Positions 1-8,734 of a DNA stretch of 64,000 bases are shown piece after piece. The number at the start of each line of letters is the position of its first letter. The first letter of the stretch is position 1. A program made the translations under genes and the position numbers. The notes beneath the pieces were generated by a model. It searched no databases, was not told the origin of the DNA, and was given only the letters and a program-made list of their open reading frames with translations. The stretch is taken from NCBI GenBank assembly GCA_951406725.2, contig OX597823.1, positions 116,746,001-116,810,000 on the forward strand, given 5' to 3'. Origin of the DNA: Octopus vulgaris (lineage: Eukaryota).

Positions 1-766
1 ACAAACAACTAGCCACAGTTGTTTAAATATGACTACAGATATTGCGTTATAGTAGATCCAGGCATATAATTCTAATTGGCTCAGTACTCTAGACTGACAA
101 ATACTTTCTACTCCTGCTTTAGCAATCAAGAGTATACTTAATTTTTAAAATATTTCCATTAAAATTATACAAATGTTAAAATTTTTGAAGCTATATCTAT
201 AACAAAGATGCCAAAAGAATTGAGCAGTATATGGTAACCCATCTGTTTAGGAGGGTAGGAATTCTGAATAAAAATTGAATTGGACTATGTGGACATTTCT
301 GACCCATGCCAATATAAAAAGTGGACATAAAACAATTATAATATATATACATATAGTGAAAAGGTTCAATAAAAAATTTTTCGACAGGGTGAATTGTAGT
401 GAAAAATATATAAAGAAGCAAAATACACAGAAATTTTACATTGGACAAAAAATATATTTTTTATGAAATAATATATTCACATTGTCAACCGGTTTCATTT
501 CTGTTAATCATGACTAAAAAGTTAGTGATAATGTTAGAATTTCATGCTATCATAGAAAGTTTTTATTTATTCCATGTTAGTAGGATGAAGGATATTTTGT
601 AAATGAATCAGAAGGCAACAAAAAGAAAAAGGCAACATGAATAGCATCTGACTTAAAATCCTGCCTCAAATAAATCTCTGCCTAAATCCATGCTAGAATA
701 GGAAAATAGATATCAGACAATCAGATCAGATCCCATTCATCCAGACATGAAAGTATGACTTTGAAT

Positions 767-862
<96 letters not shown>
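767..862. repeat. Compound (CA)n/(CT)n microsatellite
   Basis: Directly visible dinucleotide arrays. Confidence 0.95.
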
Positions 863-863
<1 letters not shown>

Positions 864-1049
864 TTTGATCATTATATATCCTATAAGGCATAAACATCGA
901 TTCAATTTATAAATATTTATAACAAACTATCATGAGTAGAGAAGTGTAAGCTTGATGGACAGAGGGTAGTTGGAGTGACAGTAACTGTGGTGGAGTAGCT
1001 TGGCTACCCCACCTACATCTTCTGTAAAGGAGAACTGAAGCAAGCTATG

Positions 1050-2309
1050 AGACCCATAAGGAAAAGATACCCAGGGGAGCTTGCATAAGGAAGAGCACCT
1101 TAAACAGACGGACCAGAAGACAACACTGGACAGTGAAACAATAGCTGAGAAGAATGGACCGTTGAAAGATCAGTGCATCTGCAGTGAGGCCTGAAAGACC
1201 ATAAGAGGCTTGAGAATTGACCAAAGCCAGGATGAGATGTTGGACAGCAGAAATGATAAGAGAGTGCACAGAAGAGTTTGGTGAGATGCAGAAGGAGCCT
1301 GAGCTGGAGTCAAACCACAGTGTCCAGAGCCTGTATGGGTCACCCAAGCCACTGCTTGTGGCTTTATAGCTGATTTACTGGTTGACTGTAGTCACATGAC
1401 CCAACCAAGGATCTAGTGACCCCATCCATTGAAGATATCTGAGTGGTTGCAGTTTGTCAAGGATGTCGATTGAATATTAGAAAGGGCTGCCAAGAGATAT
1501 CTGAACAACAGGTTGAAAACAATTGCCCACATCATAGTAAACTTTAACGCTGGGCATTTTGGGACCAGGTCCATACCATCAGCCTATGCACTTGACAGCA
1601 GAGCAATGAAAATCCAGCATCTCAGGCAAGAGCTTAAATCATTCAGGAAAGAATGCAAGAAACAGTGGAGGTTGAAATGGCTAGTGTGGCAGATCTTCAG
1701 GCAATCCTCAGGAAGGAGCATATGATATTGTTGAGAGCAGAGAGCCATAAAATGTGATAAAGAGAAAGAGCAAAGAAGAGAACTGCATTCTTGGCTAAAC
1801 CCTGCAGATTGACAAAGCAGCTTCTCAGTCAGAAAACTGATTGGTTGATCTGTTCCAAGGACTCTATTAATAAGCAAGTCATGAGTGTTTGCAGTGACAG
1901 TGAGAGAGACCAACCACCGAGCCACACGCAAGTCACAGCATCATCAGGACCAACAATAAGATTCAACTAGAAAGAAAGATCTTTACCTGAGAGAAGTGGA
2001 AGAAGTCGTAAGAAGGGAAAGATCTAACTGATAACCAGACCTGAGTGCCATATAATGTTGACAAGTATTCCATTGGCTTTGGAAGGCCATGAAGATGATT
2101 CAGAGGAGAGGGAAGGTTGCCAAACCATGAGAAAAGAAGACAGCTGAGAATTTTGAATCATCTCCTTGCTTTGCATGGGGAGCAGAAATTCCTTCAGCAT
2201 TGTGTCTAAGGGACTTACCAATTTTCTGCTCAACAATGGTTACATTGACAAGTAGGTTCAGAAGGTAGGAATAACAGATGTCTCCAGATGCCTTGAACAC
2301 ACAGGAGTA
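1050..2309 (+). mobile_element. Decayed HERO-like non-LTR retrotransposon, 5' part
   Basis: Manual translation with stops and frameshifts: Zn-finger-like RGLRI..ARMRC, KIQHLRQELKSFRKE, RERAKKRTAFLAKPCRLTKQLLSQK, and RT-region SIVSKGLTNFLLNNGYIDK*VQKVGITDVSRCLEHTGV; these match recalled HERO ORF motifs. Confidence 0.75.
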
Positions 2310-3947
2310 ATGCAAACCCAGAGCTGAACATACCCCAAAATCGAAGGTCTCCAAATGTATACTTTGTTGTAATTTCTGAAAATGACTATAAATGTCTAAG
2401 CTAACACACACAAAAAAAAATTGACCAAAAGTTCAATTTTAAGAAATTTTATGGCATTTTGAACTTGGGACATACATGCAGATAAACAATAATATGTGAA
2501 CAGTGTCAAAATTTTACCTGCCAAAATTCACCAAAATGAAAAAAATGGCGTGAAAATTCTATTTAAATAAAAGAATAAATAATTTTTTGCTTGTTTTTTT
2601 TTGTGTCATCCAAGGGAAGAAATGTGACTAAGAATAGATTTTATTCAAATTCTTTCTTTTATTTTTTTTTTTGCAACTTCAGAAACAGTGAAGTTATCGT
2701 TGATGTTAGGGAATTTATCCCTAAAATCCAGCAAAATTTATTCAAATTTTATCAAGAATTTTGTAATTTTGGGGAAAAAAGGGGCACCAGACAACATCTA
2801 AAGGCTATTGGATTTTGAAAATTTAAGATATATGCTCAATTAAATATCAGATTCCAAAATATTACCCTTTGCCCTTTTTACAAAAGAACTAATTGATATT
2901 TGATACACCTTTCTATAACTTTTATCCATCAAAATTCATCAAATTTTGGTTGAGTTTTTTATGCTAAATATATCAATCCTTTTGAGAGTTTTTTACTTTT
3001 CAAAGTGACATGTGGGTATGGTAGGACAAGGGACAGTTGTAACAGACTAAAGAAGCAAAATAAATAAGAAGGATTTACTAGACAAAATGTGTTAGAGATT
3101 ATCTGCATTTTGCAAAAAATCTGGAAAAATTTACCTGATGATTATAAGAATGATGCAAAAAACGAATCCAAATGTTTCTAACTCACTTTTAGTCTTCAGA
3201 TTTTGATGTAATATAATTTGCTAAGGAATCTATTTCTTTCAAAGGTCCTTCATCCATGTATCTAAAGGAGCAATATTTTGTGGAATGTTCTTGCACCACG
3301 GTATTCCTGTCTATTTCAACAAATACCTGGTGAATGTGTCTTTTGAATTTTTGCTTTGGCCTGGCTTTCCCCCTAAAGTTGTTATGAGTTTTCTGAACAA
3401 TTTGTCATCGGCCTCCAAACCAGATTCATGAAGCTGAGCAAGTTTATTGCCATCATTAACCTAAGTGAGCTCCCACAGGTGACCTAGCTGTTTGCGCATG
3501 ATAGGTGTGGTGCTGATCTAATTCAGGTCTGTTCAAAGGAATAGATAAAGATCAGTATAGATACTTTGGTAATGTTAAACACTGATATGATCTTTGGTAT
3601 TAAATGGTCTCAAAATACTTGCTAAATGATTGCCAAAAAGTTTAAAATTCTTCTGATCAGCTTCTTTCGTATTTCAAACTTAATTTAATATTTGCAACAC
3701 TGCAACACAATGACTTCCCAATGCACTAGAATGACACTTCCAATCAGCTCTTAAACACTACACCATCATAGCAATATTTTCAACCAAGTTGTAATGAAAA
3801 ATTGATATCATACTCACTTAAAATTATATCCATGATTATATTAGTCTAATAATTAAGATGTAGATTAATTTCTTATGTTCTGTACTCATGAGTGTGTGAA
3901 AGCCAAAATCAGAAATGTCAGCAAAAAGGTTGTTCTTGACCCCTGTG
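2310..3947 (-). mobile_element. Internally deleted Transib/RAG1-like DNA transposon inserted in the HERO LINE
   Basis: Interrupts the HERO RT between CLEHTGV and QLIRE; GAGTA duplicated at 2305-2309 and 3948-3952; minus-strand end reads CACAGGGGTCAAGAACAACC; contains a transposase relic. Confidence 0.7.
3189..3664 (-). pseudogene. RAG1/Transib-like DDE transposase C-terminal relic
   Basis: Single frame from 3664: EADQKNFKLFGNHLASILRPFNTKDHISV*HYQSIYTDLYLFL*TDLN*ISTTPIMRKQLGHLWELT*VNDGNKLAQLHESGLEADDKLFRKLITTLGGKPGQSKNSKDTFTRYLLK; then a shifted frame ..HSTKYC..GPLKEIDSL..*. Resembles RAG1 HKTLAH..SEGNESGNKLFRR. Confidence 0.72.
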
Positions 3948-4800
3948 GAGTAGAAATACAACTCATAAGAGAGACACAACAGAAAAGAGTAAATTTAGCT
4001 GTACTGTGGCTAGACTTGGCCGGAGCCTATGACTTGATACAACATAAGCTGGTTGAAGTTGCACTAGAGAGATATCATGTACTGCAAAAGTAAAAGACCT
4101 CATCACAAACTACTACAGCAAGTTCAGGCTGAGGGTTTCTTCTGGCAAGCTGACCTCTGACTGGCACCGACTTGAAGTGGGAATAAATAATGGGTACACC
4201 ATCTCAATGTCTCTCTTTGTGTCTGCAATGAACATGCTGGTTACATCAGCAAGGAAGGAGCATTGAGATCTCCTCAGCTGACAGGAGTAAAGCCTCTAAA
4301 AAAACGGAAAAGTCACAAATGAGTACTACTTCAAGTTAGGGAAATATAAGATTCTTTCTGTCACAGAAAAACTAATGAGATGTCTCTGGAAGGTCTTAAG
4401 GACATCATGAAGGTAACTAGAGCAAACTTAGAAAGCTGGTTGAGAATCATAAACATGTCTAAATTACCAGGAAGGTTCAAGGTTTGTTTGCCAGAATGAG
4501 ATCCTCCTAAGAATAATCTGGACATTATTAGAGATTTGTGAGGGAGCGGTAACAAACTCAGGCTCCCATTCAATTTTGCCTGGGAAGAATTCGTGATGTC
4601 GTAGGTATGAGATTACACGTGGTACACCTGCACAAAGGAATCCAAAGTGTCTCATCCAAAAATTGTTGTGGGAACACAAAATAAAATGGAAGGCATTGCA
4701 GACAAACAAAGAATTGGAAATACAGAAGCAGGGTATATGGAAAAAGTAGAATAAGAAGCCTGAAGAACAACGTAGTAGTTAAAGAGAACGTGTCTAGATG
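3948..4800 (+). mobile_element. Decayed HERO-like LINE, continuation of the RT domain
   Basis: QLIRETQQKRVNLAVLWLDLAGAYDLIQHKLVEVALERYHV; WHRLEVGINNGYTISMSLFVSAMNMLV; LPGRFK. Confidence 0.8.
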
Positions 4801-4877
4801 GCTCTGGCTGAAAAGAGATGTGTGTATATCTGTGTGAGTGTGTGTGTGTGTGTGTGTTCCTGTGTCTGTGCAGAGAA

Positions 4878-5180
4878 GGTACACAGCTCAGTCGTTAGGA
4901 CATTGGGCTCACACTCATGAGGTTAAGAGTTCAGTTCCCAGACGAGGTTGTGTATTGTGTTCTTGAGCAAGACACTTTATCTCACGTTGCTCCAGTTCAC
5001 TCAGCCGTAGAAATGTGTTGCAGTGTCACAGGTGCCAAGCTGTATCGGCCTTTGCCTTTCCCTTGGGTATCATCAGTGGCATGAAGTAGGGAGGCTGGTA
5101 TGCATGAGTGACTACTGGTCTTCCATAGACAAATTTGCCTGGACTTGCATCTTGGAAGGAAACTTTCTAGGTGCAATCTC
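4878..5180 (+). mobile_element. tRNA-derived SINE, family C (CORE-like TTCTTGAGCAAGACACTT)
   Basis: A/B-box-like head; homologous to 37495-37835 (-), 42375-42520 and 51515-51833. Confidence 0.75.
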
Positions 5181-5486
5181 ATCGTCATTTTCCCCTTTTC
5201 CTATATATACATATACATATATATATATATATCACGTGACCGACCAAGCTATCAGATGTTGCTACACATCGTTGGTCACATCGCTGGTCACATCGCTGTG
5301 TATCAATTCCACTCACAAAACTTTGGTTGGCCTGATGTTATAGTAGAAGACACTTGTCCAAAGTGCCTTGCAGTGGGATTGAACCTGGAACCAAGTGGTT
5401 GGGAAACAAGCTTCTTAACGTACAACTATGCCTGTATGATGAACTTATATAAAATGTTTGTGTATGTGAGTCCTATTGTAAATATA

Positions 5487-5522
<36 letters not shown>

Positions 5523-7273
5523 TATATAGAAGATATAAGACAGATAAATCATATACAGTGTATGCACCAAAGATCACAGAAAACTGACACATGGTTCTTG
5601 GTTGCCTTTGGCAGAGTTTGCTATGTTGCAAGCACTGGAATCCCAGTTCATGGCCACCACCCTTCTCCGTTTCTGATTAAATTATAAACACAAATACTTT
5701 CACCTCCATTGCCCCTAACTCCACATATATGTAACTCTTACCATTAAATCTGGTCTTAACATAAGTATACCAAATTACTGATGTGCTATTTGAGGTAGAT
5801 CAAAGATTACTTGACATGACGTTTACAAACAACATCTGACAATGTCTGGCACCTCAGGCAAAGTATTTGGAAGACTCTTGAAAATCTGTCCAATCCATGT
5901 CATCATCATCATCATCATCATCATCATCAATCGCCAGTAACTATTTACACTTACATCAATCACAATGACAGACACATCACTCCTATGTTCCTAAGTTCTT
6001 CAGTAATCATACCACCACTGTCTTCCATAAGGTTTTCAACGATAATTTTGGAAGGACACCCATAGTTCACCGGCCCATGTGGTTGTTCCTAAATAAAGGA
6101 TTTGGACTATGGTCAACACTGGTATCACAGACAGTCCACAGCAGTGTTTTTTTTTTTGTTTTTTTTATTGGTCTGGAAAAAATGTGCTTTACTGGTGACC
6201 CTTCAAGACCAGAAATATTATGATTAAGGTTCCTCTTCTATAGATGCAAGTCATCAACCACAAGGAAAACATGAAGAGGGAGGGAGAACTTCTAGAGAGA
6301 GGCTCATGTTGTGAGTAAGGTATGATGTGGGCATAATATCCATAGGTGGTATACAAGTGGGTAAATGATAGGTGAGTCAGGGCAACCTGAGTGGAAGAGG
6401 TATGAGACGAACCAACTTCAAAGAGCAAGGGCCACTGCAACAGTAAAAGTAATAGGAAAAATTCAGAGTGGACATAGTTTAAATTTGTGGTGATGATGGA
6501 AGGCTGCTTTATGTTTATGAACATAGTTTATTGATGCATTAATATAGGCGTTCATGTTATATAAGTAAAGAAATATTCAGATAAAACAATGTATATGACT
6601 AATGCAGTAAGATTTTGTTAGAAATTCAACAGTTGAGCTAATCTTTACATGTCAATGCGTATTCTTATTGGCATGGTGTGTCTTCTTTGATTGTTTCATG
6701 TTGAATATGTAGCTGTGAAAACAGCTTGTGTGGAGAGTGAACACCACCAGGGACTGAATCACTCTGAAGTTTTGGCTCTCAATTGAGTTGTATTTGTAAG
6801 CTGTGTTCATTGGAAGTTCTAGTAATGCCACCAAACAGCCCCAAAAACACCAGCTGGGTTTGCACTCTTGATCAAATTGTGATTTTTATATGGCAAAACA
6901 TGGTATTGAATCCAATTGTTGTATATTCTTGCCATCAGTCAGTAGTAAGAGGATCACCATAAAGTTGCTGGTTGTTTACTCTCTGCATCCAGCTAACATT
7001 GAAGGTCACATTTCAATAAGTTAAAATCGTTGTTACAAAAATAATTATGAATTTTTCTTTCATTAAAATAATGGTGTTTGTATAAACAATGCTGTTGTCT
7101 GTGTGAGGGTCTCAAGTCACATCAGTTGTACTCACTGACCTCTGAACTACACAAAAACAACAACCAGAAATAAAATGTTTTTCAATGTAAATACAATTTC
7201 TTTTTCTATCATTAGACATTCTTGTATTTCTTTTCAAACATTTTTTCCTACATTATATATCTTTCTATCTATC

Positions 7274-7327
<54 letters not shown>

Positions 7328-7644
7328 TATGAGCATGTATAAGTGTGCATGTGTTTCTGTATGTCTGTGTGTATGTATACATACACACGCAGGCACACAC
7401 ACTACGAGTGTGTGTGTGGATGTAGTTTCTGTTTTCAGTTTTTGCTGTCCTTTGATTCCTTTTATCTTAATCTTCAATTTCACTTTACGTTTTCTTTCAT
7501 CTTCTTCACTGATCCACCTCTCCCACACTCACACTGTATTTTTCCACCCCACTCCATCAGGTATATCCTCCCCATAATTTCCCTCTCTCTTTCTCTCTAT
7601 CTCCCTCTCTCTATCTACCTATCTATCTATCCATCTACCTATCT

Positions 7645-7720
<76 letters not shown>

Positions 7721-8734
7721 TTCTCTTTTATTTTTATCTGTATGGCTGTTATTTTTGTCATTTGCATCTGAGATGTTAGCTTATCTTATACTCATACCTG
7801 CCAATTTTTATATTGCTTTCAACCCAACCTCCTCCTTTACCACCCTCCCGCTTTCTCTTTTATCTTCCTCCCTACAGCTCTCTCATGACCTTTTAAACTG
7901 GCAGTCTCCAACTGTTGGTCCTTGGACTTGTAGTTATCCAGGATAACTTTTTTACTGGTCTCCATAAACATTATCATCTCTAAGCATCCATCATTTGCAT
8001 ATTATAATTGTTTTCCATTAGGTTCCTTATTTCGGTGTTCCACTACTCTCCATATTTTATTGATATTTAACCTCTACAGAAAAACATATATTTTTCAGCA
8101 TGTAGTTCAATGTAGTTTACACTGTAAACATGTTGTGTAGACATTCAACCATCATTGCTATCTTCAAAATTCTGCTGCTTTTCGCATGGGATTTTTGGTT
8201 CTTTAAAGTCTATAAGTTGACCTTCGTTTTTTGGTTCTAAATTTTGGTCTGGAAAATTCAGCTTGTATCACAGAAAATATGGTAATTAACCAAAGTGTTC
8301 TTTGACGAGCAACCGATTCTTTTATCTTTTTATCTTTACTTGTTTCAGTCATCAGACTGTGGCCAAGCTGGGGTACCTCCTTGAAGAATTTTAGTTGAAC
8401 GAATCAACTCCATTACTTACTTTTATTTTAACCATGATACGCATTCTATCAGTCTTTTTTGCCAAACCACTAAGTTACTGGGACATAAACACACAAATAC
8501 CAGTTATCAAGTGGTGACGAGGGTGAGAGACAAACACAGACTCAAAGACACACATGCACATAGATCTCATTCCCTATTAGTTACCTCTGATGAGCATAGG
8601 CTTACATAATTGGATTGTTACCTAACACTCCATTGAATCTCTGGTGCAAAACCAACTGGTAAGATCAGAAGCAATGGATATATAATACTGTACACTTTGG
8701 ATAATATATAGACCATTTGACATTATATCAGGCT

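Follow-up and report, generated by a model that had tools for sequence, protein, structure and literature searches.

In a 64,000-nucleotide (nt) stretch of Octopus vulgaris contig OX597823.1 (positions 116,746,001 to 116,810,000; hereafter referred to as the window, in whose coordinates all positions are given), a decayed non-long-terminal-repeat reverse transcriptase (RT) gene is interrupted by a 1,638-base pair (bp) insert (2310–3947) with GAGTA at both edges. A sequence-only reading of the window, made without database searches, had described this insert as a relic of a RAG1/Transib-like transposon with a recombination signal sequence (RSS) heptamer-like end and a 5-bp duplication of the target site (TSD). 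Here we report a computational analysis of the insert, which is very probably a dead, internally deleted Transib copy, likely of the RAG-proximal Subgroup I and likely pasted into the RT gene of a retrotransposon by the transposase of a full-length parent.

The ~1.64-kb insert, flanked on both sides by GAGTA, is borne out by direct reading and by an empty-site comparison. The left flank, one GAGTA and the right flank together align without a gap at the junction to the RT paralogs L191 and L192 (2 of 2), which are both of the copies returned by the genome search, indicating that the insert is a true insertion; the chance match of two random 5-mers from the window is 0.2% (per fixed pair). The rejoined host reads CLEHTGV-EI-QLIRE, compared with CLEHTGVLT*LI and CLEHTGAMTQLI in the paralogs. 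The interruption of the RT, which had been placed exactly between CLEHTGV and QLIRE, is thus real, but the split is less exact, as the TSD is separated from QLIRE by two codons (EI). The host is presumably a HERO element, a label based on its motif, as in the earlier reading, and unconfirmed by Pfam, which returned no matches on either RT flank.

On the minus strand, a stop-containing frame gives TPIMRKQLGHLWEL..HESGLEADDKLFRK, with CGC at 3496–3494 and GAG at 3415–3413, and corresponds to some 170 codons from the C-terminal end of a Transib transposase gene. A profile built from 38 full-length relatives has a single match in the window (74 bits, i-E 5e-24), and the window peptide scores 84 bits on it, versus 2.7 bits for the best of 200 shuffles. 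The remnant is 46% identical over 3667–3284 (E 8e-33) to P0234, an intact, unnamed protein of 704 amino acids (aa), with a second match (3308–3204) after a frameshift. The frame read earlier (3664 to ~3310) was correct, but its extent was not: the remnant continues through the frameshift near 3290 to a terminal stop, and the shorter reading left out the remnant of the CCGHC tail (Table 1). The 239-codon read-through contains 12 stops.

A profile of six family copies gave 19 matches in the PDB (E ≤ 10). Seventeen of them fall on RAG1, RAG1L or HzTransib and cover the same stretch; these matches are weak (best E 0.005) and the RAG1 rows redundant. In the RAG1 alignment, HKLLGH pairs with HKTLAH and ESGLEVCNK with SEGNESGNK, which places the Glu encoded at 3415–3413 at the position of the RAG1 catalytic Glu, where the sequence-only reading had put it; the mutation of the first His to CGC holds as well. 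The Transib superfamily is characterized by a RAG1-core-homologous transposase with a C-terminal H-x4-H motif and a catalytic Glu, all of which are found here, and the assignment of the insert to the RAG1/Transib superfamily is supported by both the profile and the PDB alignments.

The proposed internal deletion is also confirmed. The window copy lacks residues ~45 to 530 (~490 residues), including both catalytic Asp residues of the DDE triad, which are present in P0234; the region of the first Asp is degenerate in another family copy, C21. A putative start would join ~45 codons on to residue ~530 through this deletion, which is family-wide. The 5′ ~870 bp was considered as coding and rejected: a frameshift-tolerant alignment of the N-terminal and middle parts of three relatives scored no better than shuffles, and the region is accordingly read as non-coding, barring the short probable start.

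Table 1. Features of the insert and its host gene (window coordinates)
Feature	Positions	Strand	Basis
Host decayed non-LTR reverse transcriptase, upstream half, ending ...CLEHTG	2040..2304	+	Empty-site alignment to RT paralogs
TSD GAGTA, left copy	2305..2309	+	Direct reading, empty site
Degenerate 3′ terminal repeat, terminal CAC gone; family consensus begins CACAGTGGACCCAGGGCTG	2310..2347	+	End comparison across family
3′ non-coding arm, family-shared; longest consensus stop-free stretch 83 codons; no RAG2-like match	2348..3188	-	Family alignment
C-terminal Transib transposase remnant (P0234 residues 535–703), in-frame stops, frameshift near 3290, terminal stop ending at 3189	3189..3667	-	Profile and P0234 alignment
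CX2CX3GHX4C (CTT1/CCGHC) tail remnant: PWCKN, then HSTKYC in other frame	3270..3301	-	P0234 alignment
Glu aligned to RAG1 catalytic Glu (E of GNES); invariant in 57 relatives; E619 of P0234	3413..3415	-	PDB/profile alignment
H-x4-H zinc-ligand motif, with Arg (CGC) in place of the first His; second His retained	3479..3496	-	Direct reading, profile alignment
Probable transposase start MDIILSEYD, compared with MEFLLTEYD of P0234; weak, inferred match	3807..3833	-	P0234 alignment
Joint of further ~630-bp deletion in 5′ non-coding arm; absent from other copies of genome	3897..3898		Family alignment
5′ terminus CACAGGGGTCAAGAACAACC...; family consensus begins CACAGTGGGCAAAAAAGGCC	3898..3947	-	Family end comparison
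TSD GAGTA, right copy	3948..3952	+	Direct reading, empty site
Host reverse transcriptase, downstream half (EIQLIRE...LWLDLAGAY...)	3953..4258	+	Empty-site alignment

In a search of 1.84 billion proteins, the six-copy profile matched 258 with E ≤ 0.001. They lead to a large set of mostly unnamed 650–760-aa proteins with PF26100/PF12940 matches, the named ones being ctenophore proteins (Bolinopsis P0052 and Mnemiopsis P0238); no relative was found in prokaryote genome contigs or viral contigs. The closest sequence found is P0234 (an ENA/JGI/Logan cluster of 4), which is 63% identical to the C-terminal part of the family consensus and shares with the family the unusual NSDEEVNQQ motif and an EVD.LV.Y.KS tail; unlike the window copy, it has a single open frame with the DDE and zinc ligands present. 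In a FastTree analysis of 40 sequences and 160 C-terminal columns, P0234 is sister to the window copy plus consensus (support 1.0). The family clusters with two ctenophore proteins, apart from four Hz-like sequences, which make up a clade of their own (support 0.995). A CX2CX3GHX4C tail occurs in 50 of 75 relatives of at least 640 aa and is intact in P0234, and the alpha11-12 region comprises 38–43 residues in all ten relatives compared, versus 32 in all four Hz-like sequences; the window copy retains its distal part only. Public assemblies contain a large clade of Transib proteins that are intact, ~700 aa long and equipped with the CCGHC tail (P0002–P0068 and P0229–P0240); very few of them are named, and P0007 and P0235 sit on megabase contigs. 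On a metagenome contig (L158:2502-2539), a 3′ terminus is 33/38 identical to the family 3′ consensus, while its transposase is just ~27% identical to P0234, the end being conserved.

The insert belongs to a multicopy family. An element search of the 2.8-Gb genome gave 35 matches, mostly 65–80% identical. Twenty-six loci align to a consensus of ~2.2 kb with 5–19% mismatch (median 14.2%; 14.8% for the window copy), and a 27th supplied one more 3′ end, giving at least 27 copies; all of these family counts are floors. The same large coding deletion is spanned in one alignment block by 9 of the 26 loci. The independent deletion derivatives L038:7322-8857 (C21) and L045:~670-1850 (C18) retain P0234 residues 251–343 and 404–507, respectively, and such other pieces of the transposase imply that a full-length parent was once present in the lineage. 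End-pattern searches, with three matches each, also returned L050, L052 and L053 (3 of 6), which were dropped as chance matches having no further family similarity. When the portion specific to the C18 copy served as query, microsatellites swamped the matches, and no further copy was found. At L005 and L020, other elements starting TTAACCCTTTAG seem to be inserted in family copies, just past the match to element position ~1590–1610.

Both family consensus ends, CACAGTGGGCAAAAAAGGCC (5′) and CACAGTGGACCCAGGGCTGG (3′), start with CACAGTG, the exact RSS heptamer. The right end of the window copy reads CACAGGGGTCAAGAACAACC on the minus strand (in a longer reading, CACAGGGG..), which confirms the CAC end seen in the sequence-only reading, whereas the left end reads ATGCAAACCC..., lacks CAC and is 2 nt shorter than the consensus. 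The right 50 bp of the insert correspond to the family 5′ end and are joined to the remainder by a private ~630-bp deletion. The two consensus ends diverge after 10 bp and depart from the RSS-like 12/23 layout, as neither has a nonamer at a spacing of 12 or 23 bp; an A-run occupies positions 29–34 of the 3′ consensus end but is missing from those positions of the 5′ end. A repeat finder applied to 2200–4100 reported no terminal inverted repeat (TIR) among the 25 longest of 75 pairs; the ends share only ~10 bp, and the left end of the window copy has decayed. Rfam gave no match in window 1–8000.

Three copies have both ends: the window copy (GAGTA/GAGTA), L034 (CTGTA/CTGTA) and L032. The genome-wide comparison of ends thus bears out a family with CAC consensus ends and 5-bp TSDs, the latter in 2 of 3 two-ended copies, a small sample; no new two-ended TSD-bearing copy emerged from 12 further 10-kb flanks.

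Three features define the Transibs of Subgroup I, namely an alpha11-12 region and a CTT1 tail, both lacking in Subgroup II, and asymmetric, bipartite TIRs (Tao et al. 2022, PMC9435367). By the alpha11-12 region and the CTT1 tail, the window element is likely a Subgroup I Transib with the CCGHC tail, RAG-proximal and distinct from RAG1L/ProtoRAG. Several observations weigh against this reading or loosen it. The tree contains no RAG1 or RAG1L and its deep supports are low (0.0–0.9), so that membership of Subgroup I rests on the diagnostic features and on a by-eye comparison with published sequences. CAC starts just 8 of 12 5′ ends and 3 of 9 3′ ends, with end positions placed by eye, and a candidate second TIR box, TGGACWTTT, at position 27 (5′) versus 18 (3′) is not significant, being reached by 112 of 2,000 shuffles. 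The two-ended copy L032 has no matching repeat (1 of 3), the 3′ terminus is degenerate in both TSD-bearing copies, and the TSD length therefore derives from few cases. The read-through peptide alone gave no matches in Pfam or the PDB, and no full-length or open copy was found in the genome by protein searches that used a stricter initial screen and so give floors.

The insertion itself is, judging from shared contig sequence, older than several related organisms. Among the 5 of 24 listed sequencing runs that were searched, contigs contain both junctions in organism B (run X6) and the right junction in organism D (X10). In organism E (X14), a contig covers 2710–3915; over 1,219 letters, it shows 87 differences (~7% of sites) and 25 gaps. 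This contig bridges no junction, and the case for orthology is its high identity and its extension 18 bases beyond the private deletion joint. In this likely orthologue, the first His codon is intact and one of the stops is absent, indicating that those lesions arose later than the insertion. No RNA run was listed as containing the insertion, which counts neither for nor against expression.

Four other explanations were weighed. That the insert is a relic of a true RAGL transposon (RAG1L–RAG2L, ProtoRAG-type) that has lost RAG2L and most of RAG1L is very unlikely. Molluscs do have RAGL transposons, which have the CCGHC tail, CAC ends and 5-bp TSD in common with the family (PMC7204232), and a short C-terminal profile scored fish RAG1 marginally over HzTransib (20.1 versus 17.3 bits). 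However, with the profile of full-length relatives the order is HzTransib (200 bits), RAG1L (134) and RAG1 (95–110), and it is identical with P0234 alone. Moreover, P0234 has just 704 aa, with no RING or other RAG1 N-terminal family in Pfam, and the ~0.85-kb 3′ arm, with no stop-free stretch above 83 codons, leaves no room for RAG2L. PF03089 (RAG2) had no matches in the genome, a weak test as the control was also silent; to that extent, the lack of a RAG2-like sequence noted in the window holds.

A classical Subgroup II Transib (HzTransib/Drosophila-type) is very unlikely and largely refuted, as alpha11-12 and CTT1, absent from Subgroup II (PMC9435367), are both present in close relatives and survive as remnants in the window copy, and the four Hz-like sequences stand apart in the tree. 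CAC(A/G)GTGG ends and a 5-bp TSD also occur in the Hz-like locus L161. HzTransib is the best PDB match of the relatives, but it is the only Transib in the PDB, and the match is therefore not diagnostic of Subgroup II.

Chapaev/CMC elements are CAC-initiated too and have shorter TSDs. An element of this type, in which GAGTA would be a 3-bp TSD plus two chance bases, is highly improbable. The left end, lacking CAC and 2 nt short of the consensus, permits a GAG|TAATG.. reading, so that a 3-bp duplication and a degenerate terminus are compatible with the window copy taken alone, and the empty site fits 3 or 5 bp alike. By contrast, all protein matches are of RAG1/Transib type (PF12940, PF26100), L034 has an independent 5-bp repeat, and the annotation of a Pleurobrachia element of Subgroup I gives a 5-bp TSD (PMC9435367 supplement). 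Finally, a domesticated or otherwise functional remnant, to which the retention of the insertion in related organisms might point, is scarcely credible and, for a protein, refuted by the stops, the frameshift, the loss of both Asp residues and one zinc His, a divergence from the consensus like that of other copies, and the differences and gaps in the likely orthologue of organism E.

For a dead Subgroup I Transib, the following history is suggested by analogy with RAG, ProtoRAG and HzTransib biochemistry (PMC1131882, PMC10462144). A ~700-aa DDE transposase would have bound the CACAGTG ends, its CCGHC tail clamping the DNA just inside, and excised the element by nick-and-hairpin cutting; the ends would have been joined to the two target strands at points spaced by 5 nt, and repair would have duplicated GAGTA. 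A full-length parent in the lineage would have given rise to several deletion derivatives, of which one of ~2.2 kb would have been amplified in trans, and all copies would later have decayed, apparently neutrally. As the active-site Asp residues are missing from the window copy and from its sisters, mobilization of these copies in trans is likely.

The superfamily and the subgroup are already known, and the family described here is a new, dead member; of the suggestion of a possibly undescribed cephalopod family, the family stands, but its subgroup has been described (PMC9435367). No report of Transib in cephalopods was found in the literature searched, outside which lay Repbase/Dfam and genome-paper supplements that may already list the family. 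The term Transib has no occurrences in the available text of PMC8967140, and in that of the PMC9435367 supplement, figure pages excluded, neither do Octopus, Sepia, Euprymna, Architeuthis, cephalopod or Mollusca. In 39 genomes, most of them molluscan and two from cephalopods, a survey based on open reading frames (ORFs) found one Transib element in all (PMC10294476), and molluscan RAG-like elements were described by Panchin and Moroz (2008), according to PMC8355894.

At least three other Transib-like lineages occur in the same genome (L097/L104/L105; L100/L102; L116, L120, L121 and L124). Several invasions are suggested by the seven Transib-like loci compared, none of which resembles the window family at the DNA level. 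L212:3812-4884 (C24, ~17.84 Mb) is another, separate relic of Transib-like type with less of its sequence deleted; it covers profile positions 341–707, with the second Asp (VDGK), a CxxC..GH tail and a long branch in the tree. The decayed family and the further lineages extend the range of Transib and are fossils of a kind that ORF-based surveys miss, and they supply matched end sequences for the intact, unnamed transposase P0234. The window copy is itself inert and leaves the model of how RAG originated unchanged. We tentatively suggest, as a possibility that falls short of an even chance, that octopods were invaded, probably horizontally and repeatedly, by RAG2-less Subgroup I Transibs combining a RAG1-type core, a ProtoRAG-type CCGHC clamp, two ends that each carry the exact RSS heptamer, and a second TIR box whose position is shifted by roughly one helical turn (9 bp). 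If so, P0234, a member of a large and almost wholly unnamed clade of ~700-aa transposases, together with the ends read from the fossils, would offer a living model, open to testing, of the single-gene precursor that has been proposed for the RAG transposon. Elsewhere in the window, 4871–5189 and 5296–5435 are common interspersed repeats (73–84% identity in many fetched loci), which may be like short interspersed nuclear elements, and 5265–5298 is a 12-bp tandem repeat of 2.8 copies.

Among known systems, the closest counterparts are the Subgroup I Transibs, which have been proposed as intermediates between Transib and the RAG transposon (PMC9435367). The loci in the supplement of that study comprise the ctenophore MleTransib and PbaTransib and a Salpa (salp) fragment, and the ctenophore Transibs have a ..SPT(V/L)H..L.HSWELI..N...LG...ESGLE.NNK motif and CACAGTGG ends. 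By-eye comparison indicates that the window family shares the C-terminal H-x4-H/ESGLE motif and CACAGTGG ends with them, as well as the CTT1 tail, the longer alpha11-12 region, the 5-bp TSD and the single gene (PMC9435367), while constituting a distinct, dead cephalopod family. HzTransib (PDB 6pqn) belongs to the same superfamily and is the best solved-structure match (E 7e-58 for the relatives' profile), and, like the window family, HzTransib and dipteran Transibs have CAC ends and a 5-bp TSD, with non-autonomous deletion derivatives being normal for the group (PMC1131882). Unlike the relatives of the window family, however, HzTransib lacks the CCGHC tail and alpha11-12. The layout of heptamer, 23 bp and A-rich nonamer, defined on dipteran families (PMC1131882) and not stated as universal in PMC9435367, is unmatched in the window family. 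ProtoRAG/RAGL elements (BbeRAG1L, PDB 6b40; mollusc RAGL, PMC7204232) have in common with the family the CCGHC tail, alpha11-12, heptamer-like ends and a 5-bp TSD, whereas no RAG2L or long RING-bearing N terminus was seen in the family, and its relatives score them below the HzTransib level. Vertebrate RAG1 is a distant cousin only, as the family has no 12/23 nonamer and the window copy retains no function, yet HKTLAH and SEGNESGNKLFRR of RAG1 align residue for residue with the family profile, and the consensus ends are identical to the RSS heptamer CACAGTG.

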